64,000 nt of DNA from a virus. Its lineage: Duplodnaviria; Caudoviricetes. The notes beneath the pieces are model-generated. The model did no database searches and was not told the DNA's origin. It saw only the letters and a program-made list of their open reading frames with translations. The stretch lies in the IMG/VR virus record IMGVR_UViG_3300049988_000286, positions 160,001 to 224,000 of that record; one strand, written 5' to 3'. The position numbers and the translations under genes were made by a program. Numbering within the stretch: position 1 is the stretch's first letter; each line of letters opens with the position of its first letter. Below, one piece after another: positions 394-58,697 of the stretch.

Positions 394-1206
394 ATGGACG
401 ACTTTAATGACGGCTCGGTTCGCCTATTTCACGGCGATTGTTTAAGCAAGATGCAAGAGATCGCCGATCAGAGTGTTGAATTAATACTATGTGATCTCCC
501 CTATGGGACAACTGCTTGTGCGTGGGACTCGATCATCGATCTCAATGCCATGTGGTCCGCGTATCGCCGCATCATCACACCAACGGGCGCGATCGTGTTG
601 ACTGCCGCCCAACCATTTACTTCGGTGCTCGCAGTCTCAAACCTCGAATGGTTCAAATACACTTGGGTGTGGGAAAAGAATCGACCCACCAATTTCGCAC
701 ATGCCAAGAACAAACCAATGAAGAAGCATGAGGACATTCTAGTATTCTCTCCCGGAACTACGGTTCACAAGAGCCAGAGCAAAACGCGGATGACATACAA
801 CCCACAGGGAGTGCAGCAGATCACTCCGAAGAAGGTAACGAAGAAAGCGAGCGAGAAGACCGACGCTTTCTTCGCAGACCGCCCCGGTCACCGAGAGTTC
901 GAAAGGAAGGAGGCGGGCTTCCCGCACTCTATCTTGACCTTTGCTACTGACCAGCTTGGTCTCCACCCCACGGCAAAGCCCATCGACCTCATGCGCTATC
1001 TGGTGCGGACCTACAGCAACCTCGGCGAGACTGTGCTCGATAACACGATGGGGAGTGGTTCCACCGGTATCGCGGCAGTCATGGAAGGACGCAAGTTCAT
1101 CGGGATCGAGCAGGATGACCACTACTTTGAAATGTCGCGACGACGGATAGTCGAGGTGAGTGAGCCCAACCCCGTCGAGGACGGGGATGGGATTATCATC
1201 GCCTGA
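394..1206 (+). CDS. DNA N4-cytosine/N6-adenine methyltransferase, beta class, orphan
   Basis: catalytic motif IV ILCDLPY near the N-terminus; HPTAKP; SAM-binding motif I VLDNTMGSGSTG near the C-terminus. Confidence 0.9.
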   Translation: MDDFNDGSVRLFHGDCLSKMQEIADQSVELILCDLPYGTTACAWDSIIDLNAMWSAYRRIITPTGAIVLTAAQPFTSVLAVSNLEWFKYTWVWEKNRPTNFAHAKNKPMKKHEDILVFSPGTTVHKSQSKTRMTYNPQGVQQITPKKVTKKASEKTDAFFADRPGHREFERKEAGFPHSILTFATDQLGLHPTAKPIDLMRYLVRTYSNLGETVLDNTMGSGSTGIAAVMEGRKFIGIEQDDHYFEMSRRRIVEVSEPNPVEDGDGIIIA

Positions 1207-5837: not shown

Positions 5838-7217
5838 CTACGCAGCCGCGCGATCCCTCACTTCGGCAAGCGTCGTCGAACCGACCGCAAGACCATCGAG
5901 GAAGCGTCGCTTGAGGAGGTCGCCTTCCGCGCCGTAAGCGACGGTGACGATTTGACCATCAATGCGCACCACCGAGAGGCGTCCGCGCTTCGAGCGCTTG
6001 CTGTGATCACCCACCGGGTCTTTGTAAACGTCGATCCACTCACCGTTGATGCGAGCCGCGCAGCACTTCATGGCGAACTTGAGATCATCGCGGTTGACGA
6101 TCTGGAGCAACCCGCCGCCCATGCCGAAGGCAATATTGTCGAGCGAGTAGCCAGCCGCCAAGACGTTCCGGATGAGGATCAGGAGCGTCTTGTGCGTGAT
6201 CCCATCTCCTTGGATGATCCGAACCGCCGGGTTGAGGACGCGAAAACCTTTGCTGTTGACGGTGTGGCCGAACGCCGCATCGAGGCGCTGTAGGATTTCC
6301 ACGGGCACCATTGTGGGGTCACCACTGTCAGGACGAACGACAACGACGGTGCCGCTATCGAGCACCTCTTGTTTGAGTTCGACGCCCCAGATGTTCGACA
6401 CCGCATTGTAGATGTCGTAGCTGTCCGAGACGGCGGAGATCATCACGCCGCGACCACCCAGCTTCGTCATCATGTTCCGATACGCTTGCGCCTCATGCGA
6501 GCGACCGAAGCTGGTGACCGTCGAGTGCTCCATCGCCGAAATCGAGTTGCCGGGCATCTCGTCAGCGTAGAAGCGACGCCCCGCCACGAGCGCTTCGAGG
6601 GTGTCGGTTCCACGGAAGTTGACGAGATGAGCGATCCCGCCGATTGCGGCGCTCTCGCCGCTTGACACGCCGCGTGCACCGAAATCGTGAAGCTTGAAGG
6701 GGATTTGACCCTGCGGATCGTCGGAACTCTCCACGAGGCCGTCCATGATCATCTGGCGGCACATGTAGGAATTTGTAGCTACCGTCGTGGGATACCAGAT
6801 GGCGCGAAGCAGCGCGGTTTCGAGGAACGAAGTCAGCCAGAAGAACTCCGGATCGGTGTTGACGATGGTGACGAGCGGGGTGCCGGTCGGCACAACCATG
6901 CCTTCGTCGATCGCGCGAATCTCCACCGGGAGCCTACCACCGTGCTTATCGACGAGAAGCCGCCATCCCTCTTCGAAGAAGGGCACGCCATAGAGGGGCG
7001 ACATCGCGACGGCCTCATCGACCATCGCGTGGGTTACGGGATTGGTGAGGATGCGATCTCGAAACATCTGAAGACCGAAGTAGCAGATACGATCCCAGAT
7101 GCCGCCACGGCTCTCGATGTAGGAGTAAACGTACTCCGTGCCTCCGGGGTATTGATATGCGTGCGACCACTTGTAGCCGTCGCTCATGATGCAGATGTTG
7201 TCGGTAAAGGTAGTCAT
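5838..7217 (-). CDS. nadV: nicotinamide phosphoribosyltransferase (NAMPT)
   Basis: SDGYKWSH, LHDFGARG, SAMEHS, VVVRPDSGDP, IIQGDG, FGMGGGLLQ; the track start ATG 7235 lies inside the SD, so 7217 is preferred. Confidence 0.95.
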   Translation of the reverse strand: MTTFTDNICIMSDGYKWSHAYQYPGGTEYVYSYIESRGGIWDRICYFGLQMFRDRILTNPVTHAMVDEAVAMSPLYGVPFFEEGWRLLVDKHGGRLPVEIRAIDEGMVVPTGTPLVTIVNTDPEFFWLTSFLETALLRAIWYPTTVATNSYMCRQMIMDGLVESSDDPQGQIPFKLHDFGARGVSSGESAAIGGIAHLVNFRGTDTLEALVAGRRFYADEMPGNSISAMEHSTVTSFGRSHEAQAYRNMMTKLGGRGVMISAVSDSYDIYNAVSNIWGVELKQEVLDSGTVVVVRPDSGDPTMVPVEILQRLDAAFGHTVNSKGFRVLNPAVRIIQGDGITHKTLLILIRNVLAAGYSLDNIAFGMGGGLLQIVNRDDLKFAMKCCAARINGEWIDVYKDPVGDHSKRSKRGRLSVVRIDGQIVTVAYGAEGDLLKRRFLDGLAVGSTTLAEVRDRAAA

Positions 7218-7238
7218 GATAATGGAATCCTCCATTAA

Positions 7239-7271: not shown

Positions 7272-8381
7272 TTACTTCTTCGGGGTCTTGAGCATTGCCT
7301 TGAGGGTTTCGATGATCGCGAAATGATCCTCGAACATCATCTCCGACTTGATGTCCGCGATAGGAACCCAGCGAGCCACCTTGGCATCGCTGCGACCCTT
7401 GACCTTCGGGAGGGGTCCATCTTCCAGCTTGATCAGGAAGACTTGCGAAACGACGCGGCCACGATCGCTGCGGTAGGGATAGTTGGCATTCATCTGGCCA
7501 ACCATCCCGCCCTTGAGGCGACTGTTATTCACGTCGATCTTGGTCTCTTCGCGAAGCTCGCGGATGAACGCATCTTCGTGCCATTCGCGGTTTTCGAGGA
7601 AGCCTCCGGGAAGCGCGAGCAGACCCTGCCCCGGAATGTTCTTTCGCTCGATGAGGAGCACGTGCCCGCTCTGAACCACCATGGCATCGACAGTGTTGTG
7701 AACGACCGTGGGGCGGAAACCGAGTTCCTTCTCCACCATGTCAGCAGCCTTCTCGAAGGCCCGGCGATAGTTCTGGTTGTAATCGACTTCGCGGAACAAG
7801 TGGGAAAGATCACCGCCACGCAAAAGATCACGGATGGTAGCGTTGGTGCCAAGCGGAACGCTCTTCGCCGATTCAGGTGACCACCGCTTTGATGCATACA
7901 AGGCGTCGCGCATGTTGGTAGCCGAGAGGTTATCGTGAAGGCTCTCAACCCCGATCGACTCCCACTGCGGGAACATATCGAGGAAGAAATGATTCCCCTT
8001 CTCGTCCTTGGCGTGCCCGATCAACGCGATCTTGGGCTTGTTTTCCCACGGACCGGTATCGTCGATGACGCGCGACATCGCGGACTGAACGTCCTCCTGC
8101 CATTGCAGATTGGAGTAAGGAGCGTCTCGAACAGCGGAGATCAGGATACGATCATGGAAGCGCGGATCGAACGATCCACGGATCATCTCCTTGACTTCGT
8201 TGAACGAGAAGGGAGAGCGCTCCGTGCGCGGCTGGAAGCACGAACCAACGATGACGTGGACGTACTTGGAGCGGGTGAGCGCAATTTCGATGATGCGATG
8301 GTGAGCGTTGTGGAAGGGGCGAAACCTGCCGATAAAAACGCAAAAATCGTACTGGCCCCCATCGGGGCGGTCGTCTGACAT
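7272..8381 (-). CDS. nadM: bifunctional NMN adenylyltransferase / Nudix ADP-ribose pyrophosphatase (NadM-Nudix, NatV-like)
   Basis: FIGRFRPFHNAH nucleotidyltransferase motif, IGHAKD, LSATNMRD, Nudix box GGFLENRE..RELREET, GRSDA, MFEDH. Confidence 0.92.
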   Translation of the reverse strand: MSDDRPDGGQYDFCVFIGRFRPFHNAHHRIIEIALTRSKYVHVIVGSCFQPRTERSPFSFNEVKEMIRGSFDPRFHDRILISAVRDAPYSNLQWQEDVQSAMSRVIDDTGPWENKPKIALIGHAKDEKGNHFFLDMFPQWESIGVESLHDNLSATNMRDALYASKRWSPESAKSVPLGTNATIRDLLRGGDLSHLFREVDYNQNYRRAFEKAADMVEKELGFRPTVVHNTVDAMVVQSGHVLLIERKNIPGQGLLALPGGFLENREWHEDAFIRELREETKIDVNNSRLKGGMVGQMNANYPYRSDRGRVVSQVFLIKLEDGPLPKVKGRSDAKVARWVPIADIKSEMMFEDHFAIIETLKAMLKTPKK

Positions 8382-8405
8382 TATATCCTCCATCAGAAGG
8401 GTTGC

Positions 8406-8955: not shown

Positions 8956-9212
8956 AGACGATTACGGTAGAACTCGGGCAAGGGAAGAGTTACGACTTCA
9001 TCACCGCCGTCGAGGTAGCGAGAGCGGTCGTTGAGGGGGAGTTTCACCTCAAGCTGGGGTTGGCCTCCGTAGAGGCATCGTTGCCTTCATCGAGGCTGCG
9101 CTACTTCCTCCAAAATCATCTCTCGGGTATGTTCGCGCTCATCTTCACATCGCAGCATGACGCCACCATGTTCGTCCTCGCCTATCAGAGGAGCGACAAT
9201 CCCGATGTTTGA
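8952..9212 (+). CDS. small hypothetical protein, C-terminal F-x-x-x-x-D-x-x-x-F-x-L family
   Basis: FTSQHDATMFVLAY. Confidence 0.7.
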   Translation: MKTITVELGQGKSYDFITAVEVARAVVEGEFHLKLGLASVEASLPSSRLRYFLQNHLSGMFALIFTSQHDATMFVLAYQRSDNPDV

Positions 9213-9456
9213 AGTCACTTTCCCACCCAGCGACTTCGACGGCATGGAACGCTTCTACGCGATTCGGCAAGCGCGCAAGCACGCGTTAGGGCCGTTCTCT
9301 TTGCGTGTGGGCGATAAGCGGATGTCAGCCATGAAGGGGATGCTTCCCGATGAGGCTTTTACCGCACATCTAGAGGATCGTTGGGGTCTCGTCTTCGAGA
9401 GCGAGGTGGACATGATGATGTTCAAGCTGGCGTTTCGCCCGATGGATCAGGCGTAA
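9205..9456 (+). CDS. small hypothetical protein, same family, 83 aa
   Basis: SD GAGGAG; FESEVDMMMFKLAF. Confidence 0.7.
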   Translation: MFEVTFPPSDFDGMERFYAIRQARKHALGPFSLRVGDKRMSAMKGMLPDEAFTAHLEDRWGLVFESEVDMMMFKLAFRPMDQA

Positions 9457-9797
9457 GCGGCAAGCTTCTTGGCCGTCGCCTTCATCCGCTTGCCCTCGGT
9501 ATCAGCGTGCTGGCAGCAGAACAGCAGGTTGATCACTCTACCCTTGAGCGAGTAGACGAGAATGATGTCGGGGGCGAGGTGGCAGTGCTGAAACCCCTTG
9601 AGCGGTCCGGTGAACGGACGATCATGGGAGCCGAAGCGTTGCTGTAAGGGATCGGGTAGCTTGGCGGCAGTGAACTGCGCCAGCTTATCCTTGAGACGCG
9701 GGTTTGCGCGCAGCAAGACGGCGAAGCTTTCGGTGAAGAGCGGCTTGGGTGCGATCGTCCACGGAACATCTCGTCCCGCTTCAACGATGATCGCCAT
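9447..9797 (-). CDS. YafQ/RelE-family mRNA interferase toxin, 116 aa
   Basis: DRPFTGPLKGFQHCHLAPDIILVY...CQHAD aligns by eye to E. coli YafQ DHPLQGSWKGYRDAHVEPDWILIY...GTHAA. Confidence 0.8.
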   Translation of the reverse strand: MAIIVEAGRDVPWTIAPKPLFTESFAVLLRANPRLKDKLAQFTAAKLPDPLQQRFGSHDRPFTGPLKGFQHCHLAPDIILVYSLKGRVINLLFCCQHADTEGKRMKATAKKLAAYA

Positions 9798-9805
9798 CCA
9801 CTCTC

Positions 9806-9946
9806 TTAAAGAGCGGCGAGCCACTTCGCGAATTCTTCCTGCGACATCGACTGGGTATCGTCCCCCTCGGCCGCGATGATGCGCGCGACGAGATCGGTAT
9901 CCTCGGTGATGATCTGCTCGATCAGCATGTCGGTGTCCTTTTCCAT
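9806..9946 (-). CDS. putative antitoxin, 46-aa acidic peptide (not in ORF track)
   Basis: MEKDTDMLIEQIITEDTDLVARIIAAEGDDTQSMSQEEFAKWLAAL; ends 8 nt before the toxin ATG. Confidence 0.65.
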   Translation of the reverse strand: MEKDTDMLIEQIITEDTDLVARIIAAEGDDTQSMSQEEFAKWLAAL

Positions 9947-9952
9947 GACCGG

Positions 9953-9958
9953 TATTTA
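9953..9958 (-). promoter_or_regulatory. late promoter TAAATA for the antitoxin-toxin pair
   Basis: 6 nt upstream of ATG 9946. Confidence 0.65.
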
Positions 9959-9984
9959 GCACAGTTCTGCGGCAAGGCAAGCAC

Positions 9985-10055: not shown

Positions 10056-10727
10056 ATGGAAAGAAATCGTTTTTGCGGCTTTTGTGGCACTGAATTCAAC
10101 GATCTGTCGTGGCCGCGCCACTGCACGAATTGCTCACGAGTGACCTACCGTAACCCCCTCGCTGTAGCGATCTGCCTCCAGCCGATCACCCACGGGGAGC
10201 GGACCGGACTCGCTATTGCCCAACGCGCTATTCCACCCGTTGGTGGTTGGGCGTTGGTGGCAGGACACCTCGAAGTGTTCGATCATGGTAGCGAAACGGT
10301 TGAGGAAGGGGCGGCACGCGAGTTCTTCGAGGAGACAAGCGTGCGTTCGGGCGCGAACCCACGCCTCATCCGCAGCGAGAAGAACCATCTCGGTCACCTG
10401 TTGATCATCGTCGAAACCGATGCCATCCCTTGGTCGGACTGGACAAAGGCCAGACCCTGTTCGGAAAACCTCGCCCTCGACGTAATGTGGGAGCCACGTG
10501 ACCTCTGCTTCCCCATTCACACCAAGGCAGCCAAGGATTGGTTCGAGGGTAGACAGAAGCCAGCAGCGACGCTTATCTTCAGCACCATCAACGAATACGA
10601 TTCGTGGTGCGCGGTATGGTCGATCGATCGGAACGGTGACTACATCGATGTGATCTTCGAGGATGCCGACGCGGAGACTTGCGAAGATTGGTGTGCCGCG
10701 AATGGCTATCGTATCGTCATCGTCTAG
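10056..10727 (+). CDS. Nudix hydrolase with N-terminal zinc ribbon and C-terminal extension
   Basis: FCGFCG...HCTNC..YRNP; GWALVAGHLE...AAREFFEETSV. Confidence 0.85.
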   Translation: MERNRFCGFCGTEFNDLSWPRHCTNCSRVTYRNPLAVAICLQPITHGERTGLAIAQRAIPPVGGWALVAGHLEVFDHGSETVEEGAAREFFEETSVRSGANPRLIRSEKNHLGHLLIIVETDAIPWSDWTKARPCSENLALDVMWEPRDLCFPIHTKAAKDWFEGRQKPAATLIFSTINEYDSWCAVWSIDRNGDYIDVIFEDADAETCEDWCAANGYRIVIV

Positions 10728-10889: not shown

Positions 10890-11212
10890 CCTTGCTTCCT
10901 CTCACGCCGGGGCTCCTTCTCTCGATGGCGCTTCGCTACGATCACAGCTTTGGCATTCATGGACCGTTTGATCCAGAACCCGATCTTGCTTCCAAGCAGA
11001 TGGCGATCTTCGATCAGGCGGTTGAGTATTGGCGCACTAGACACGACGAGCCCATTACTGTAACCGACCGTCAACTCCGGGAAGAAATGACCGGGGTTGG
11101 CTTCTTCGTCCCGGCCGTAGGTCAGGAGGATGTGAGCCTTCTTCGTGCATCAATGGATGCACGGGTGTTCGAGCACCTTGTGTGCTTGGTTGAGAGGTAT
11201 CGAGATGAGTGA
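10886..11212 (+). CDS. hypothetical protein, 108 aa
   Basis: coupled on both sides. Confidence 0.65.
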   Translation: MTLLPLTPGLLLSMALRYDHSFGIHGPFDPEPDLASKQMAIFDQAVEYWRTRHDEPITVTDRQLREEMTGVGFFVPAVGQEDVSLLRASMDARVFEHLVCLVERYRDE

Positions 11213-11648
11213 AACGGGTTTGCAGAAGTTGAAGGCCGATGTCATCGTGGCAATGAAGGCTGGGGATCGCACGCGCCTTGACGTGCTTCGCCAGTTCGTC
11301 AACCGCACCACGATGACGGCGAAGAACGACGGCAACCGTGACGCCACCGACAAGGATGTGATCACCGCCGGTCTCAAGATCGTCAAAGAGGCGAATGAGA
11401 CCCGCTCGATCTACGTCGAGAAGGGCGTCGATACCTCGCCGCAGGACACCGAAATCGCGATCGTCTCCGAGTATCTGCCCCGGCAGATGAGCGAGGATGA
11501 TCTGCGCGCCGTCCTCGTCACTCTCTCTGCCTCGGCACCGGAGGGCAAGGCGGCGCGCGGCTATTACAACAAGGAGTTGAACGCGCGCCACAAGGGCGAG
11601 TTCGACAACGCGGTGGCGCAGCGCATGATCGCCGAGATGGTAGCGTGA
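11205..11648 (+). CDS. GatB/YqeY domain protein
   Basis: VAMKAGDRTRLDVLR, EIAIVSEYLPRQMSEDDL. Confidence 0.85.
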   Translation: MSETGLQKLKADVIVAMKAGDRTRLDVLRQFVNRTTMTAKNDGNRDATDKDVITAGLKIVKEANETRSIYVEKGVDTSPQDTEIAIVSEYLPRQMSEDDLRAVLVTLSASAPEGKAARGYYNKELNARHKGEFDNAVAQRMIAEMVA

Positions 11649-12101: not shown

Positions 12102-12614
12102 ATGGTTTGCACGCATGATCATCCCCTCGTCGAGACGCAGCAACTCGATGAGATGTATTACAAAACGATGATGCAGAAGATTGTGCCCGGCTACCTGCCG
12201 ACGCGTGACTACGCCCCGTTGATTAAATTCGTCAAGTATCAGAAGACTGTGGGCAACACGATTCAGTTCTTCGTGCCCAACCGCTACAACGGCTTCATGG
12301 TTTATATCCGCTTCGATGAATGGGCGGAGAATGTCCGCGATCTCGAATACACGCCAGTAGAAGCAGCAAGGCTTCTATTCTGGGGCGCGAACCTGCGCAT
12401 CCACTGCAACTGCCCAAGCTTTGCCTTCCACGGCTATCAATATATCCTTTCCCAAACCGAATCCGCTATCGTGCCGGAAGTGCGCTTCCCCCATGTCCGC
12501 AACCCTCACCTCAAGGGTCTCTTGTGTAAGCATGGACGCCGGGTGATGAAGACCTTGCCGTTCCACCTCGGTGACATGGCGAAGGCTATCAAGGAACAGC
12601 GCGCGGCGCTCTAG
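12102..12614 (+). CDS. SWIM-like zinc-finger protein
   Basis: IHCNCPSF...LLCKHG (CxC-Xn-CxH). Confidence 0.65.
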   Translation: MVCTHDHPLVETQQLDEMYYKTMMQKIVPGYLPTRDYAPLIKFVKYQKTVGNTIQFFVPNRYNGFMVYIRFDEWAENVRDLEYTPVEAARLLFWGANLRIHCNCPSFAFHGYQYILSQTESAIVPEVRFPHVRNPHLKGLLCKHGRRVMKTLPFHLGDMAKAIKEQRAAL

Positions 12615-13177
12615 TCGCTGAACAGCACCTCGTCCGCTGTGGCCGATCCTTCGAAGTCGTAACGCTCTCCGGCTGGAAACCCGACGATGAGTTTCGTGCA
12701 GCGTTGACCACCAATCATGCGGTCGTATTTGAACCGACCATGCTTTGCTAGAATTTCTTTACCGAGTAGTTCTTCCGCATGATCGTTCGGAACTGGCGGC
12801 AGCCCGAGATTGAGCGCGACATTCGCCGCTTTACCGCTGGCCTCCGACCAGCCACGATGAAGCTTGATGTCATCGGCGACAATCCGCCGCAAATCAATCT
12901 TCGACTGTCGAGAGTCGTCGGTAGCAACACAGACGCGCTTCGCACCATACTTCTTCTTGAATATAGCAACGACGACGATCTTCCCTTTACGGCGGACAAG
13001 CTTCCACCAAGTATTGGGTTCATTGATAAGATCGTCAACACTCCGATAATTGAGGTTGCCGCCGATGTATTGATATGCTTTCTCTATCAGGTCGAATACC
13101 TCTGGCGCGTACTGCGCCTTCTGCTCGCGGTCAAAGAGGTTGACGTAAGTCTCTGTAAGAATCTCATGGAGGCGCAT
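12611..13177 (-). CDS. hypothetical protein, 188 aa, probable head-internal protein
   Basis: real start MRLHEILTE, 4 nt after TAAATA; the track ORF is over-extended. Confidence 0.75.
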   Translation of the reverse strand: MRLHEILTETYVNLFDREQKAQYAPEVFDLIEKAYQYIGGNLNYRSVDDLINEPNTWWKLVRRKGKIVVVAIFKKKYGAKRVCVATDDSRQSKIDLRRIVADDIKLHRGWSEASGKAANVALNLGLPPVPNDHAEELLGKEILAKHGRFKYDRMIGGQRCTKLIVGFPAGERYDFEGSATADEVLFSD

Positions 13178-13181
13178 TGGA

Positions 13182-13217
13182 TATTTATTACGGTGCGGTG
13201 ATGGTTTGGGGTAAATA
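13182..13217. promoter_or_regulatory. back-to-back divergent late promoters (TAAATA at 13182-13187 minus, 13212-13217 plus)
   Basis: 4 and 5 nt upstream of the two divergent ATGs. Confidence 0.7.
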
Positions 13218-13222
13218 CTCCC

Positions 13223-13873
13223 ATGCGCCACCACATCGACCTCATCAACTCTGTCCTCGTCGAGGCACAGAACACCAACGAGATTTTCCAGCAGACGCGC
13301 ACCGCGCTCACCCGCGCATGGACGAGCAAGAAGCGCCTCTCCTATCAGACCGCCCAGCGCGAGATCGTCACCACGCTGACGAAGATAGCCCAGCAGATGC
13401 AGGACGATTCGCACCCCATCACCGTCTTGGTCGATCTCTACCCCGATGATCCCAAGCCGGGTCGCCTGACCGCGCACCACGGTGGTGCATGGATGGTAAT
13501 CAACTTCGAGCGCACGCTTCCTGATGACTGGGACAAACTGTCGAACGAAGACATCACCACCGTGGTGTTCAAGGTCAGTCAGGTGTTCGCGCACGAGATG
13601 CAGCACTATGCACAGTATCTGCGCAACTGGTCGTATTTCGAGCAGCGGGGTGGTGACGCCCCCGAGAGTCAGGTGCGTTCCGACGCCGCCAGTGCGTGCC
13701 GGGAACTCATCGCCCACTACGGCGACGCCAAAACGGTAATCGGCGCGCTGAAGTCGAGCGTCGCTGACGTAATTGAGGCCTCCGAGGCAATGGCGAAGAA
13801 CCTTCGCAACACCACCAAGGAGGCCTCCAAGCGTTTCCTCACCGCCCTCTACACGCAGCTACAGACTAGCTAG
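13223..13873 (+). CDS. putative zincin-like metallopeptidase, 216 aa
   Basis: FAHEMQHYAQ (HEXXH) on a predicted helix. Confidence 0.55.
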   Translation: MRHHIDLINSVLVEAQNTNEIFQQTRTALTRAWTSKKRLSYQTAQREIVTTLTKIAQQMQDDSHPITVLVDLYPDDPKPGRLTAHHGGAWMVINFERTLPDDWDKLSNEDITTVVFKVSQVFAHEMQHYAQYLRNWSYFEQRGGDAPESQVRSDAASACRELIAHYGDAKTVIGALKSSVADVIEASEAMAKNLRNTTKEASKRFLTALYTQLQTS

Positions 13874-50664: not shown

Positions 50665-52458
50665 GTGGCTACGTGGAAGAAGTATTTTCGAGCAGTAAAC
50701 AACCCGCTGGATGCTGCGTACGAGCGACAGCAACAGGGGACGCCGGGCGATGGTCGCTCAACTGCGTCGAAGTTTCAATCGATCCTACCCGAAATCTACG
50801 CCGGGCATCCTAATCGCATTCAGCGTTACTATCAATATGAGGATATGGCACGCGACTCCGACATCTCGGCGGCGCTTGATACGATTGCCAACTTCTGCAC
50901 CCAGTCGGAGGAACAGAGCGACTCGCCCTTTGAAGTAAATTATTTCCAGAAGGCGACCGACCAAGAGATCAAGATCATTGAGGAGACTCTTACCCAGTGG
51001 GTGAAAGCCAATAAGTTCAAGGCAAAGCTGCGCAAGATTTTCCGTAACTGTGCACAGAACGGCGATGCTTTCTTCATCCGTGATCCCGAGGACCATACTT
51101 GGTTCTGGATCGACCATTACGCGGTCGAGTTGGTCAAGATGACGGTCGATGGTAAGCGCGAGCCGGAAGAGTACTTGATCAAAAACTTCGATCCGAACAC
51201 TACCGAGCGTTGGGGCACGTTCGTTGATGATATCTCCCGCTACCGCAACCCCGGAATGTCCCCAAGCGCATCGGGTCGCCCGATGGCATCGCAGTCGGGT
51301 TCACAGTTCCAGATGGCGGGCGCGGATCGCGATCAGCGCGCGCAGCGAGGGCAGCCGGGTCAAGCGGGGCTCAACACCTATGTGGCCGTCAAAGCCGAGA
51401 ATGTCGTCCACCTTGCCTTGAGCGAGGACATGGATATCAATGCTCCTTTCGGTCAGTCCGTCCTTGATCCGATCTTTAAGACCTTCAAGCAGAAGGAATT
51501 GCTTGAAGACTCGATCATCATTTACCGCGTCCAGCGCGCGCCCGAGCGTCGTGTCTTTTACATCGATGTCGGTGCAATGAACGGCGTTCGTGCGCAGTCC
51601 TATATCGAGGGTATCAAGAACGAAATCCATCAGCGTCGTATTCCGAACCGGACGGGCGGTGGATCGGCCATTATGGATACCGCTTACAACCCCTTGTCGA
51701 TGCTCGACGATTATTTCTTCGCCCAGTCGTCGGAAGGTCGTGGCTCAAAGGTTGAAGTCCTCCCGTCCGGCGACGCCTTGGGCGAGATCACCGACCTCTC
51801 TTACTTCACCAAGAAGATGGCGCGCGGCCTTCAAATCCCCACCACCTACCTCTCGCTCGGTGATGATGAGCAGCAAGCCAGTTACAATGACGGTAAGCTT
51901 GGCTCCGCCCTAATTCAGGAATTCAAGTTTAGCAAATACTGTATGCATCTCCAGAGTTTGCTCGCGCCGGAATTTGACAAGTTCTTTAAGGAGTATCTGG
52001 AAGCCAAAGGCGCGATTATCAGCCCTGACTTGTTTGAATTGCAGTTCAAGCCGCCGCAGAATTTCACGAAGTATCGACAGATCGAACTCGATCTACAGCA
52101 GACGCAGGTTTACTCATCCGTCGCCGGTAATACTCACCTGTCGGAGCGCTTCAAGCTTCGCCGCTTCCTCAACCTCACCCCGGAGGAGATGTTGGAGAAC
52201 GAGACCGATTGGGCGGAGGAGAATCCGGAGAAGATGAAGGCAGCGACTGGCTCGACTGCCGCTGAATCAACCCCGGATGGCGATCTTGGATCGATCGGAA
52301 TGCGGCCCGACGACGGTGGCGATCTCGATCTCGACCTCCCTGATGAGGGAGGGGACATGGACTTGGGCGGAGATGATCTCGGTGGCGGTGGCGGCGACGC
52401 CCCCGCGCCCGGCGGTGATGCTCCCGCAGCACCGGCACCACCAGCAGCAGGAGCATAA
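50665..52458 (+). CDS. portal protein (T4 gp20-like)
   Basis: IIIYRVQRAPERRVFYIDVG, DDYFFAQSSEGRGSKVEVLP. Confidence 0.95.
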   Translation: MATWKKYFRAVNNPLDAAYERQQQGTPGDGRSTASKFQSILPEIYAGHPNRIQRYYQYEDMARDSDISAALDTIANFCTQSEEQSDSPFEVNYFQKATDQEIKIIEETLTQWVKANKFKAKLRKIFRNCAQNGDAFFIRDPEDHTWFWIDHYAVELVKMTVDGKREPEEYLIKNFDPNTTERWGTFVDDISRYRNPGMSPSASGRPMASQSGSQFQMAGADRDQRAQRGQPGQAGLNTYVAVKAENVVHLALSEDMDINAPFGQSVLDPIFKTFKQKELLEDSIIIYRVQRAPERRVFYIDVGAMNGVRAQSYIEGIKNEIHQRRIPNRTGGGSAIMDTAYNPLSMLDDYFFAQSSEGRGSKVEVLPSGDALGEITDLSYFTKKMARGLQIPTTYLSLGDDEQQASYNDGKLGSALIQEFKFSKYCMHLQSLLAPEFDKFFKEYLEAKGAIISPDLFELQFKPPQNFTKYRQIELDLQQTQVYSSVAGNTHLSERFKLRRFLNLTPEEMLENETDWAEENPEKMKAATGSTAAESTPDGDLGSIGMRPDDGGDLDLDLPDEGGDMDLGGDDLGGGGGDAPAPGGDAPAAPAPPAAGA

Positions 52459-53873: not shown

Positions 53874-54494
53874 ATGTCGCATATCCCACTTACCGAAGAC
53901 CTTACCTTTAGTCAGTCGATGCTAACCCCGCTGACCGAGGGCGAGGGTTCCAAGAAGGACTGGTACCTCAAGGGTATTTTCGTGCAGGGCGATGTTCGTA
54001 ACCTCAACCGTCGCGTGTATCCCACCAACGAGATCAAGAAGGCGGTCGCGCTCGTGAAGGAGAAGGCCAAGGACTTCACCGTCTGGGGCGAATTGGATCA
54101 CCCCGCAGAGTTGCAGATCAATCTGGATCGCGTCTCCCACCTCATCGAAGACATGTGGATGGAAGGCAATAACGGCATGGGCAAGTTGAAGATTGTCAAC
54201 ACGCCGATGGGTAACATCGCCAAGGCCATGCTTGAAGCCGGTGGCAAGATGGGTGTGTCTTCGCGCGGCTCCGGCAACGTCGATTACGACGGCGTTGTTT
54301 CCGAGTTTGAGATCGTCACCGTTGATCTGGTTGCTACTCCGAGCGCACCCGATGCCAAGCCGATCGCCATCTACGAGGCGTTCACTGGTCCGCGCGGCTA
54401 CATCCGCGAAGATTTGGCCCGTGCGGTCATGAATGATCCAAAGGCACAGAAGTATCTCCATAGTGAGATGCTGTCGTGGATGGATCGCCTGTAA
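53874..54494 (+). CDS. prohead core protease (T4 gp21-like)
   Basis: GELDHP, RVSH, GVSSRGSG, TVDLVATPSAPDA; TAAATA at 53842. Confidence 0.95.
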   Translation: MSHIPLTEDLTFSQSMLTPLTEGEGSKKDWYLKGIFVQGDVRNLNRRVYPTNEIKKAVALVKEKAKDFTVWGELDHPAELQINLDRVSHLIEDMWMEGNNGMGKLKIVNTPMGNIAKAMLEAGGKMGVSSRGSGNVDYDGVVSEFEIVTVDLVATPSAPDAKPIAIYEAFTGPRGYIREDLARAVMNDPKAQKYLHSEMLSWMDRL

Positions 54495-55910: not shown

Positions 55911-57107
55911 ATGAATCTTTTCGAAAGCAAGTGGGATGGCCTCAAGGAGAAGCTCCTCGAAGGTTCCGACCTCACGCACAACATGGACGGTTCGCTGAAC
56001 AACAACAAGAAGAAGACCATGAATCTTCTCCTTGAGAACACCCGCCGTAGCCTCATGGAGGCTGCTTCTTCGGGTGCCACTTCGGCAGCGCAGATCGCCC
56101 AGCTTAACAAGGTCATTCTGCCGGTCATGCGCCGCGTTATGCCCACCGTCATCGCGAACGAGATCGTCGGTGTTCAGCCGATGGCCGGTCCGATCAGCCA
56201 GATTCACACGATGCGCATCTCCTACGCGGAGTCGGTCACGGGTGGCGTTACGGCTGGTGACGAGATGTTCTCGCCCTACAACATCGCGAAGTATTACTCC
56301 GGTGATACCTCGGCTCCGACCACGCCGCAGGGCGCTCTGACTGGCACGCTGGAGGGAACTCCGGGCCGTGGCGTCAAGATCAGCACGCTGCGTCAGACGG
56401 TTGAGGCTCGCTCGCGCAAGCTGTCGGCTCGCTGGACCTTCGAGTCGGCGCAGGACGCACAGTCGCAGCAGGGCATCGACGTTGAGCAGGAAGTCATGGC
56501 TGCCGTCGCGCAGGAGATCACTGCCGAGATCGATCAGGAAATCCTGTATCACCTCCGTCAGCTTGCTGGCACCTCGCAGACCTTCTCACAGGCTGCTGTC
56601 ACCGGCACCCCGACCTTCATCGGCGATGTGCACGCTGCTCTGGCGATCCAGATCAACCGCGCTGCGAACATCATTGCTACCCGCACCCGTCGTGGCGCTG
56701 GTAACTGGTGCGTCGTTTCGCCGACCGCTCTGACGCTCCTCCAGTCGGCGACGACTTCGGGCTTCGCGCGTTCGACCGATGGTGTCTTCGACGCTCCGAC
56801 CAACACCAAGTTCGTCGGCACGCTGAACAACACCCTCCGCGTTTATGTCGATGGCTACGGTCAGGACGAGACGCCGGTTCTGATCGGCTACAAGGGTAAC
56901 GAGACGGACGCTGCGGCGTTCTACTGCCCCTATGTTCCGCTGACCTCTTCGGGCGTGGTCCTCGACCCGCAGACGATGGAGCCGGTGGTGTCGTTCATGA
57001 CCCGCTACGGTTACACCGAGTTGTCCTCGAACTCGACTTCGCTCGGCAACGCAGCGGACTATGTTTCGAAGATCAACATCGACACGACTTCGCTGACTTG
57101 GATGTAA
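55911..57107 (+). CDS. major capsid protein (T4 gp23-like)
   Basis: VMRRVMPTVIANEIVGVQPM, RKLSARWT, EITAEIDQEI, AFYCPYVPL, FMTRYG; TAAATA at 55878. Confidence 0.97.
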   Translation: MNLFESKWDGLKEKLLEGSDLTHNMDGSLNNNKKKTMNLLLENTRRSLMEAASSGATSAAQIAQLNKVILPVMRRVMPTVIANEIVGVQPMAGPISQIHTMRISYAESVTGGVTAGDEMFSPYNIAKYYSGDTSAPTTPQGALTGTLEGTPGRGVKISTLRQTVEARSRKLSARWTFESAQDAQSQQGIDVEQEVMAAVAQEITAEIDQEILYHLRQLAGTSQTFSQAAVTGTPTFIGDVHAALAIQINRAANIIATRTRRGAGNWCVVSPTALTLLQSATTSGFARSTDGVFDAPTNTKFVGTLNNTLRVYVDGYGQDETPVLIGYKGNETDAAAFYCPYVPLTSSGVVLDPQTMEPVVSFMTRYGYTELSSNSTSLGNAADYVSKINIDTTSLTWM

Positions 57108-57197: not shown

Positions 57198-58697
57198 ATG
57201 ACCCTCCGTGAACACCTCGATCTCATCATCGCTGAACACGGACTGAAACAATGGTCGAGGGTCGCACAGAAGGATGAAGCCTTCATGGCGCTTATCCCCG
57301 TCGTAGAAGGATTGTCCTTCCCCGAACGTGTCTTGGTTGCGTTGGGCGAACCCGCTTGGTGCGAGAGGGGCCAGAGGCGCAAATTCGGTTCGATCGTCAC
57401 GGGTTGGCGGTTCTGCGGCAAAACCGGCGTGTGCCCCTGCGCGGCCGAGACGGTCTCCCGGAAGTGCAAAACCAATATCGACCACGAGGCTCGATTAGCC
57501 AAAACGTCGGCGACGCTCAAGGCGCGCTACGGCTCCACCAATCCCGGCCAAGCCCCCGCTGCCAAGGCGGCGCACCGTGCCCTCTACGAAGATGAAGAGC
57601 GGGTAGCGGCAGCGGTTGCCAAAGGAAGGGCAACGATGCTTGAACGGCACGGCGTTGACAATGCGTTCAAACTCCCGATCGATCGGAAGGCTATTGCGCG
57701 CCGCGAATGGTCGATTGAGACGGGTGCCCTCCTCGATGATCCCGCTCTATTCGCCGACTATATGGCGAGCCGTTCTTCCATGGGCGCGGCCGATGACCTC
57801 GGGATCAATCCCACGACGATCAACAACTATGTTCGTCGCCATGGCCTCGATCTTCGAGGATCATCTTATGAACGCGAAATCGCGTCGTTTCTCGCCGATA
57901 ACGGATTGAATTTCAAGCCGCGTGATCGAACTGTGATCAGACCGCTGGAACTTGACTTCTTGTTAACCCAGCACGATCTGGCGATTGAGTTTAATGGCCT
58001 TTACTACCATTCTGAACTCGTTCTCGACAATGATGCTCATCAGCGCAAGTGGCAGATGTGTCACGATGCTGGTATTCGCCTGTTGATGATCAACGAGGAC
58101 GAATGGAACGAGCGCAAGGAAGTGCTCAAGAGGAAAATCCTGATTCTGTGTGGCCTTGGTGAGCGCGGCGTAGGTGGCCGTCAGCTATCTGTTCGAGATA
58201 TCGGGGCTCCTGTCGCAAGAGCATTCTGTGAGCAGCACCATATCCAAGGTGCGCCCGGTCCAGTCACGCTCGCATTGGGCGCTTTTGAAGGCGATGATCT
58301 TCGAGGTGTCGTCACGATGGGTAGCCAACGCGGCACGGGCGCAACAGAACTCACTCGTTTCTGCACTGACGGAAGGTTGTACGCGGGCATGTTTGGCAAG
58401 CTTCTGAAAGCCGCACAACATCGCTTTGACGAAATCGTGACTTTCGCCGATCTCCGCTACAGCGACGGCGGTGTTTACGACAAGACCGGATTCATCAACT
58501 GTGGCACAATTCGGCCCGACTATCGCTATGTGATACGCAACAAGAGCTTCCATAAGAGTCTCTTCACCAAAAAGCGGATTGCCGAGCGCTTCAACATTGA
58601 CATGACCGGACTTACCGAGCGTGATGCTATGCGCAGTCTCGGGATACCCCGCATCTACGATTGCGGAAAAATCAAGTATCGCTGGCTCAAAGATTGA
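57198..58697 (+). CDS. putative homing endonuclease (PD-(D/E)xK, Hef/Vsr-like)
   Basis: ELDFLL..LAIEFNGLYYHS..HQRK; Cys motif and RYG repeats; C-terminal FADLRYS..YDCG. Confidence 0.75.
   Translation: MTLREHLDLIIAEHGLKQWSRVAQKDEAFMALIPVVEGLSFPERVLVALGEPAWCERGQRRKFGSIVTGWRFCGKTGVCPCAAETVSRKCKTNIDHEARLAKTSATLKARYGSTNPGQAPAAKAAHRALYEDEERVAAAVAKGRATMLERHGVDNAFKLPIDRKAIARREWSIETGALLDDPALFADYMASRSSMGAADDLGINPTTINNYVRRHGLDLRGSSYEREIASFLADNGLNFKPRDRTVIRPLELDFLLTQHDLAIEFNGLYYHSELVLDNDAHQRKWQMCHDAGIRLLMINEDEWNERKEVLKRKILILCGLGERGVGGRQLSVRDIGAPVARAFCEQHHIQGAPGPVTLALGAFEGDDLRGVVTMGSQRGTGATELTRFCTDGRLYAGMFGKLLKAAQHRFDEIVTFADLRYSDGGVYDKTGFINCGTIRPDYRYVIRNKSFHKSLFTKKRIAERFNIDMTGLTERDAMRSLGIPRIYDCGKIKYRWLKD

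Follow-up and report, generated by a model that had tools for sequence, protein, structure and literature searches.

Here we describe a compact gene pair encoded by a T4-like phage, located in a 64,000-nucleotide stretch of DNA (hereafter the window) that covers bases 160,001-224,000 of the 499,572-bp IMG/VR virus record IMGVR_UViG_3300049988_000286 (57% GC). On the minus strand, an open reading frame (ORF) for an acidic peptide of 46 residues precedes and overlaps a gene for a YafQ-like toxin of the RelE superfamily (Table 1). The two genes most likely form a toxin-immunity module attached to the capsid-cargo system of the phage.

A YafQ-like gene and its overlapping acidic partner

The acidic ORF had been predicted from the nucleotide sequence alone, and is recovered here as a minus-strand frame of 46 codons ending in SQEEFAKWLAAL, with an isoelectric point (pI) of 4.05 and Lys3 as the only basic residue among its first 21. 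The original prediction also placed it 8 nt upstream of the toxin gene, which holds only if the toxin begins at ATG 9797 and is 116 aa long. The frame upstream of that ATG reads M(GTG 9824)-ARRSLREWMAIIVEA and aligns with the N-termini of homologs (alignment A1). The closest of these homologs start M-A-x-x-S-L-R-x-F-I-D-L-I-E-G, ahead of a conserved P-W that opens the toxin domain, and the counterpart of their N-termini in the window is GTG(9824)-ARRSLREWMAIIVEAGRDVPW. When the junctions are compared at the DNA level, the partner stop falls within the toxin S-L-R codons, and in the window as well as in loci L004, L006, L007 and L008 the toxin start, [A/G]TG, lies within the codon for the invariant Trp of the partner. 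The overlap measures 19 nt at all these loci and in L021, L023 and L041, 22 nt in L005, and 28 nt in L009 and L012. Because of the homolog alignment and the conservation of the overlap across loci, the toxin most likely starts at GTG 9824, is 125 aa long and shares 19 nt with its partner; ATG 9797 was rejected as its start on the same grounds, and with it the 8-nt gap. A 177-aa ORF at 9447-9980, taken from a mechanical ORF list, was likewise rejected, its upstream part scoring as non-coding in that frame. The 19-nt overlap suggests that toxin and partner are translationally coupled.

That the downstream gene is YafQ-like, as originally read, is borne out by profile searches. The toxin matches the Pfam family YafQ_toxin (PF15738; E 1.6e-6) at 28.8 bits, below the curated cut-off of 30 bits, and TIGR00053 (E 1.4e-7) at 32 bits, below a cut-off of 87.25; it also matches a PHROG annotated as a RelE-like toxin. 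No other Pfam family, PBECR included, matched at E values up to 10. Homologs were collected by an exhaustive HMMER search (120 representatives at E < 1e-3), and the close homologs P0005, P0010, P0020 and P0021 pass the PF15738 cut-off (30.1-33.5 bits).

An AlphaFold model of the toxin built on alignment A1 (mean predicted local distance difference test score, pLDDT, 92.7) has the order beta-alpha-alpha-beta-beta-beta-alpha, with a leader helix at residues 6-18 (pLDDT ~75), strand beta1 at 23-26, helices at 28-40 and 44-55, three strands within 79-105, and a basic C-terminal helix at 113-124. The top Foldseek matches are the E. coli and V. cholerae YafQ proteins (E 5e-6, TM-score TMt 0.75-0.82, probability 1.00), with 4mmg, 4mmj and 9lew_B as the best structures; HP0894/HP0892 of H. 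pylori are also among the first, and RelE, YoeB and ParE structures rank after these. On the strength of the model we are confident that the fold is that of YafQ/RelE.

The catalytic residues of YafQ, which we take to be H50, H63, D67 and H87 (E. coli numbering), can be traced in the toxin much as the original prediction had it: H82, D86 and H106 (125-aa numbering) align with H63, D67 and H87, and R69 aligns with H50. In alignments to HP0892, V. cholerae YafQ and E. coli YafQ, the Arg stands opposite the His in D-H-P-L. The motif H-C-H-L is matched through its second His to C-H-[IL], with the Asp three residues on, and the late His is matched to the S-H in the last strand. Across the toxin family F30, F51, K55, P59, D68, G77, H80, H82, L83, Y91, H106, E110 and G111 are invariant, and D86, K112 and R113 nearly so. 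The domain is a YafQ-like member of the RelE superfamily that keeps three of the four catalytic residues and adds conserved features of its own. It is strongly basic (pI 10.0) and, by analogy with YafQ, probably cuts mRNA on the ribosome.

The partner ORF is coding-like in its composition (GC content at third codon positions 0.83). Trained on 560 long ORFs from the genome, a codon model favors its frame over the five others by a margin exceeding that of 99.7% of out-of-frame 46-codon samples. An alignment of nine orthologs (A2) gives the pattern M-[ED]-K-x..[LI]-x-E-Q-x-I-V-x-D-x-x-L-V-x-x-I-x-x-A...(P)-M-[ST]-x-E-E-F-x-x-W-L, in which E10, V20, W42 and L43 are invariant. In a profile search of 5.8 billion proteins, the family comprised 14 clusters carrying neither a name nor a Pfam domain, several of them on contigs of 143-485 kb. 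The original observation that the peptide has no visible DNA-binding domain agrees with sequence searches of Pfam, NCBIfam, PHROG and PDB, which recognised none; neither a ribbon-helix-helix domain nor homology to DinJ/RelB was detected, and the peptide thus offers no detected DNA-binding domain for the autoregulation characteristic of type II toxin-antitoxin (TA) pairs. Known antitoxin families were considered and rejected, with a single chance match (0.086) in Pfam and none in NCBIfam or PHROGs; a PDB profile search returned nothing below E 0.25, and Atlas returned unnamed clusters and one likely chance match. Judged by its sequence, the partner family is new, minimal and without a recognisable DNA-binding domain.

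Association with the toxin is conserved. Sixteen loci besides the window were examined, and a member of the partner family lies directly upstream of the toxin in 13 of them (L003, L004, L005, L006, L007, L008, L009, L012, L021, L023, L037, L040 and L041), with the common motif LV..I..A....M[ST].EEF..WL. It is kept beside the distant toxin of L037 (37% identity) and beside fused toxins of 266, 395 and 583 aa (L023, L040 and L041). Loci L002 and L011 have neither the small ORF nor the N-terminal leader discussed below, and L039 has a small upstream ORF unrelated to the partner family.

Binding of the partner to the toxin is supported by structure prediction of the complex, which reached an interaction prediction score from aligned errors (ipSAE) of 0.69 (runs 0.67, 0.69 and 0.73) against 0.00 for the best control. 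Of 80 solved complexes, 58 reach the mark used for this score, as do 2 of 110 mismatched pairs; these figures apply only roughly here, since our own alignments were used, and part of the score may reflect likeness to solved RelE-family complexes. The runs agree in at least 65% of contacts, and the partner has a pLDDT of at least 56. Confident contacts connect peptide residues 32-46 with toxin residues 21-26, 31-38 and 45-56, as well as with leader residues about 9-21, and the net charges of the two proteins are complementary (toxin +9.8, partner -9.5).

A leader shared with unrelated proteins, and fused relatives

The N-terminal motif of the toxin homologs also heads many unrelated proteins of this genome, in the form M-R-x-x-I-x-L-[IV]-E-[GAS]. 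A strict version of the pattern, R-x-x-I-x-[LI]-[IVMC]-x?-E-[GASNH], occurs 20 times in a six-frame translation of the 500-kb genome, and 19 of the 20 occurrences directly follow an ATG; the leader is thus present on at least 19 otherwise unrelated proteins, which include a GNAT acetyltransferase, with a weak C-terminal ParB/PFIN-like match (E 4.6e-4, below the Pfam cut-off). The hexamer TAAATA stands 4 or 5 nt before the ATG of 13 of these 19 leader genes, the genome as a whole having ~98 sites of this kind (odds ratio 15, P ~5e-8, for an assumed total of 700 genes). No small partner ORF was found upstream of the six leader genes that lack such a start. A hidden Markov model (HMM) of the 19 leader proteins matches residues 7-17 of toxin homologs (E 2.5e-4 to 4e-3 in a 122-sequence set); the window toxin aligns there too, but its leader, SLREWMAIIVEA, carries one inserted residue and scores poorly (E 5).

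Head cargo of phage T4 carries N-terminal capsid-targeting sequences of 10-20 residues, ten residues suffice to load foreign proteins into the T4 head, and T4-type prohead proteases cleave after Glu (PMC9026906, PMC5694885, PMC3012670). By analogy with these sequences, the leader looks like a candidate capsid-targeting signal that ends in a prohead-protease site. Further leader-like N-termini were seen in the window: a zincin-like protein (13223-13873, plus strand) has a longer leader variant that falls outside the strict pattern, and the gene directly after the major capsid gene (57198-58697, plus strand) begins MTLREHLDLIIAEH, a leader-like stretch that ends I-A-E.

Several homologs, in other phages, are fusions in which the toxin is the N-terminal module and other domains follow. 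P0012 (774 aa) and P0021 (395 aa) join it to ART-PolyVal (E 2e-16 and 6e-18, respectively), P0008 to a ParB/PFIN-like segment, and P0010 to a stretch containing an H-E-x-x-H motif. P0020 ends in a domain whose counterpart in this genome, L035 (42% identity, E 3e-27), exists as a free-standing protein with its own leader. A BLASTP comparison of the leader protein L032 with the ART-PolyVal region of P0021 was marginal (E 0.011) and was set aside. Polyvalent proteins, including those with BECR/RelE-fold RNase modules, have been proposed to be packaged and injected (PMC5512222), and the toxin fusions, as read from their sequences, fit this concept. P0012, P0021, P0010 and P0008 are multidomain proteins; the window toxin, a single domain of 125 aa, does not itself combine several effectors. 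The linkers that follow the toxin in P0012, P0020, P0021 and P0022 (residues ~120-150) read A-G-E-L-P-E and then a leader-like stretch ending hydrophobic-x-Glu; such linkers may be internal protease sites between modules.

The module is known solely from phage or metagenome contigs. A pattern-based scan of 185,579 prokaryote species genomes, which could miss weak relatives, found no relative, and none came to light in 50,697 GenBank phage records; neither a DNA search of GenBank phages with the region nor a protein search with the toxin gave a match, and no cultured relative was found. At one of the loci with a fused toxin, L040, a 226-kb contig of an NCBI assembly, a 96-aa ORF (557-847, plus strand) with a match to the Cas12f1-like TNB domain (PF07282) lies ~1.7 kb upstream of the YafQ-ART-PolyVal gene.

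Promoter and genome setting

A TAAATA box lies 6 nt before the partner ATG, exactly as first described (Table 1). In the genome as a whole the hexamer is found 171 times against 44 expected. The genes for the portal, prohead protease, scaffold and major capsid protein each have a copy 20-50 nt upstream, with a Shine-Dalgarno leader after it, and the portal copy is an exact TATAAATA; elsewhere the distance from hexamer to start codon is exactly 4 nt (78 sites) or 5 nt (20 sites). These close spacings suggest a large class of leaderless late messages. They leave no space for a Shine-Dalgarno sequence, an example in the window lying upstream of 12611-13717 (minus strand). Neither -35 elements nor TGn were enriched at the 4- and 5-nt sites relative to random positions, which is the pattern expected of T4-type late promoters. 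The hexamer very probably forms the core of the late promoters in this T4-like phage.

The partner copy is the sole one with a 6-nt spacing, and it has TGc next to it and TTGCCT 16 nt further up. The layout TTGACA-16-TGn-TAAATA-N6-ATG is found in L023 and L007 and recurs with TTGCAA-16 in L008 and with TTGCTA-17 in L006; L004, L005, L012 and L021 instead have TTGACA/TTGACT-N17 followed by TATCAT, TATAAG, TATAAT or TATTGT. A consensus sigma-70 scanner called no promoter between positions 9000 and 10400, since the final T of the -10 hexamer is missing from TAAATA. A genome-wide class of TTGACA-N16-18-TAAATA promoters was considered and rejected, with only two other sites found. A sigma-70 -10 hexamer at -12 to -7 and a gap of 6 nt place the A of the ATG at +1, so host RNA polymerase may read the operon as a leaderless message; the late machinery may transcribe it instead, or both may do so.

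A T4-type head module with portal, gp21-type prohead protease and Gp23 major capsid genes lies inside the window, ~45 kb from the gene pair, which is itself surrounded by NAD-salvage and NUDIX genes (Table 1). Synteny of NAD-salvage and nucleotide genes around the pair is also seen in L023 and L024. The cassette shows no anomaly of composition (GC 57-59%, as in its flanks). At its far end, the last codons and stop of the toxin gene overlap a convergent plus-strand ORF (9157-9456) tail-to-tail by 10 nt (9447-9456), and no terminator-like site was found between the two. Further off, the translation of 12102-12614 (plus strand) is similar by eye, over long runs, to that of L002 3292-3858 (minus strand), with a C-x-C...C-K-H motif; both ORFs are close to a YafQ-like gene, and in L002 the two genes are directly adjacent and divergent.

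Table 1. Positions of the gene pair, its control elements and other genes referred to in the text (window coordinates unless marked as genome coordinates)
Feature	Position	Strand	Details
Acidic partner ORF	9806-9946	-	46 codons, TAA stop included; predicted antitoxin/immunity peptide
YafQ/RelE-fold toxin gene	9447-9824	-	Most likely extent; 125 codons + TGA stop, GTG start 9824-9822
Dual-coding overlap	9806-9824	-	19 nt; partner ...WLAAL-stop, toxin M-A-R-R-S-L in the other frame
Toxin codons 1-15	9780-9824	-	MARRSLREWMAIIVE; degenerate leader copy ending hydrophobic-x-Glu
TAAATA box	9953-9958	-	6 nt before partner ATG (9946)
-35-like element and TGc	9959-9980	-	TTGCCT 9980-9975, 16-nt spacer, TGc 9961-9959 (extended -10)
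NAMPT	5838-7235		
NMNAT-NUDIX fusion	7272-8393		
Zinc-ribbon NUDIX protein	10056-10727		
YqeY-like protein	11205-11648		
T4-type portal	50665-52458		Portal_T4, E 1.4e-93
gp21-type prohead protease	53874-54494		Peptidase_S77 (T4 gp21), E 7.7e-27, 92 bits
Gp23 major capsid protein	55911-57107		E 1.1e-72
Leader gene, example	genome 32268	-	
Leader gene, example	genome 52375	+	
Leader gene, example	genome 349167	+	
Leader gene, example	genome 462717	+	

Cargo, addiction module or escort: weighing the readings

We favor a scheme in which the toxin is a capsid-loaded, injected RNase with a co-translated immunity peptide, and put the probability of this full account at roughly one half; that the pair is a toxin with its immunity peptide, whatever its route, we hold with considerably greater assurance. 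The acidic peptide would be translated first from the shared transcript, with toxin translation coupled to it through the overlap. Its C-terminal helix (MSQEEFAKWLAAL) is predicted to clamp beta1, alpha1, alpha2 and the N-terminal leader helix of the toxin, which would be harmless in the phage-producing cell while so held. The leader would load the toxin into the prohead, where the gp21-type protease would clip it off, and the toxin would then be delivered with the DNA into the next host and attack the translation of that host or of a rival phage. Prohead loading is proposed because the N-terminus of the toxin resembles a leader that is common to about 20 unrelated proteins and that looks like a T4 targeting sequence with a protease site at its end. 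The option of packaging for injection, raised in the original prediction, thereby gains indirect support from the capsid-targeting-like leader, the gp21-type protease and the polyvalent-module fusions, although packaging, like RNase activity, neutralisation, leader cleavage and injection, is a step that we infer.

Several points weigh against this account. A packaged protein should be made late, and the geometry of the partner promoter is unlike that of the late class driving most leader genes; the pair also lies outside the head cluster. The leader of the window toxin is the most degenerate in its family, and this copy may have lost targeting. The capsid-targeting role of the leader is argued by analogy, though a close one. 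As for the toxin, its Pfam and TIGRFAM scores fall under the curated cut-offs, and the column equivalent to H50 is variable within the family, with Arg in the window copy. Finally, the catalytic residues are absent from the confident predicted contacts, and inhibition would therefore be indirect or allosteric, or else the peptide has a different role.

The main alternative, which we regard as somewhat unlikely, is an ordinary phage type II TA pair, transcribed by host sigma-70 polymerase, acting inside the infected cell and never packaged. Such a pair could shut off the host, exclude co-infecting phages or stabilise a carrier state, and the N-terminal helix would then be part of the antitoxin-binding surface; consistent with this, the predicted interface takes in leader residues, and the leaderless loci L002 and L011 have no small ORF either. 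The layout of the promoter is sigma-70-like (TTGCCT-16-TGc-TAAATA-N6-ATG) and is found in relatives too, three others having canonical promoters of the TTGACA/TTGACT-N17-TATAAT type, and both the degenerate leader and the distance from the head genes agree with an intracellular pair. The same leader, however, heads 19 unrelated proteins that have no such partner, which points to a role independent of any antitoxin, and relatives fuse the toxin to ART-PolyVal and other effector modules. Moreover, the scan of cellular genomes, in which classical TA pairs occur, gave no relative, and an addiction module would be of little use to a strictly lytic-looking T4-like phage. The original proposal of a TA pair rewired into the late programme stands in its first part, as the pair is real, the partner is conserved beside the toxin and binding is predicted; the second part, rewiring into that programme, may hold, but the late class has a geometry that this TAAATA copy does not share.

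The injected-RNase account also has an elaborated form, in which the complex itself would enter the prohead, the protease would remove the leader and cut the peptide at [LI]-x-E, and the RNase would be freed only in the capsid, ready for injection with the DNA. We consider this form unlikely. If true, the toxin would be the first phage cargo protein to combine a dedicated immunity gene with maturation-coupled activation, and the scheme would extend to the polyvalent fusions that retain the same upstream ORF.

Protease cleavage at the invariant [LI]-x-E (residues 8-10) would perhaps also befall the peptide if it were a chaperone or adaptor, a small acidic protein that either maintains the solubility of the basic toxin or guides its leader to the prohead core. 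Glu10 of this motif is among just five invariant columns of the partner family, and the confident contacts fall on the leader helix and the helical toxin face, away from the catalytic residues. Antitoxins of the RelB, YefM and DinJ types, however, also act mainly through a C-terminal helix bound to the helical face of their toxins, acidic-basic pairing and translational coupling are typical of antitoxins, and none of the six leader genes without a TAAATA start at 4 or 5 nt has such a partner; we regard a chaperone or adaptor as rather improbable. More improbable still is a catalytically dead RNA- or ribosome-binding module in a non-toxic pair, which the replacement of the YafQ His50 and the sub-threshold family scores might suggest, given that invariance at 36-53% identity extends to the three catalytic equivalents and to other columns of His, Glu, Lys and Arg, and that a dedicated, tightly coupled partner would be hard to explain without toxicity.

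A few proteins, T4 Alt and the internal proteins among them, are known to be injected ready-made by phages, and large polyvalent effectors are predicted to be delivered likewise; how the producer cell avoids poisoning by such cargo has hardly been addressed so far. The module described here suggests one answer, in which a RelE-type RNase cargo is paired with a tightly coupled immunity peptide free of DNA binding, and multidomain fusions come with this peptide gene too. Confirmation would connect TA biology to capsid cargo loading and establish a new antitoxin family, and an uncultured megaphage lineage would have yielded a compact RNase-inhibitor pair and a new capsid-targeting tag.

Among known systems, DinJ-YafQ of E. 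coli and HP0892/HP0894 of H. pylori share the fold and the arrangement with an upstream, co-oriented antitoxin gene, and the toxin keeps the YafQ-family motif D-x-P...C-H-[LI]...D...Y...H. It departs from that family in having Arg for His50, an extra leader helix, a longer basic C-terminal helix and HMM scores below the family cut-offs, and in its occurrence on phage and metagenome contigs only. The partner, in turn, differs from DinJ in its 46 residues, in lacking a ribbon-helix-helix domain and any detectable DinJ similarity, and in the 19-nt overlap of the genes. A parallel for the peptide is PaaA2-ParE2 (PDB 5cw7), where a minimal antitoxin without a DNA-binding domain neutralises a RelE/ParE-fold toxin through its helices. 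ParE2 is among the Foldseek matches of our toxin; no sequence relation of the partner to PaaA2 was detected, and ParE2 is of the ParE type, not an RNase. PaaA2-ParE2 relies on a separate regulator. As a phage RNase of RelE/YoeB-like fold that inactivates mRNAs, T4 RegB is also comparable, but it is an early protein and is not known to have an antitoxin or a leader.

Polyvalent PBECR modules combine a BECR/RelE-fold RNase with ART-PolyVal, zincin-like and ParB-like modules and are predicted to be injected, and the parts of their description consulted here make no mention of a conserved upstream immunity ORF (PMC5512222). The window toxin, in contrast, stands alone, and matches YafQ_toxin and no PBECR family. 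We know of no T4 cargo protein that is a RelE-fold RNase, and of none with a dedicated immunity gene. The internal proteins IPI-III and Alt of T4 offer a close precedent for the leader, as unrelated cargo proteins that carry a short leader ending hydrophobic-x-Glu, which is removed by gp21 (PMC9026906, PMC3012670). The leader consensus here, M-R-x-x-I-x-L-V-E, is unlike the ten-residue T4 tag, and packaging is here a proposal; as in T4, the genome encodes a protease of the gp21 family, and in relatives the toxin is joined to an ADP-ribosyltransferase, an enzyme with the same activity as T4 Alt.

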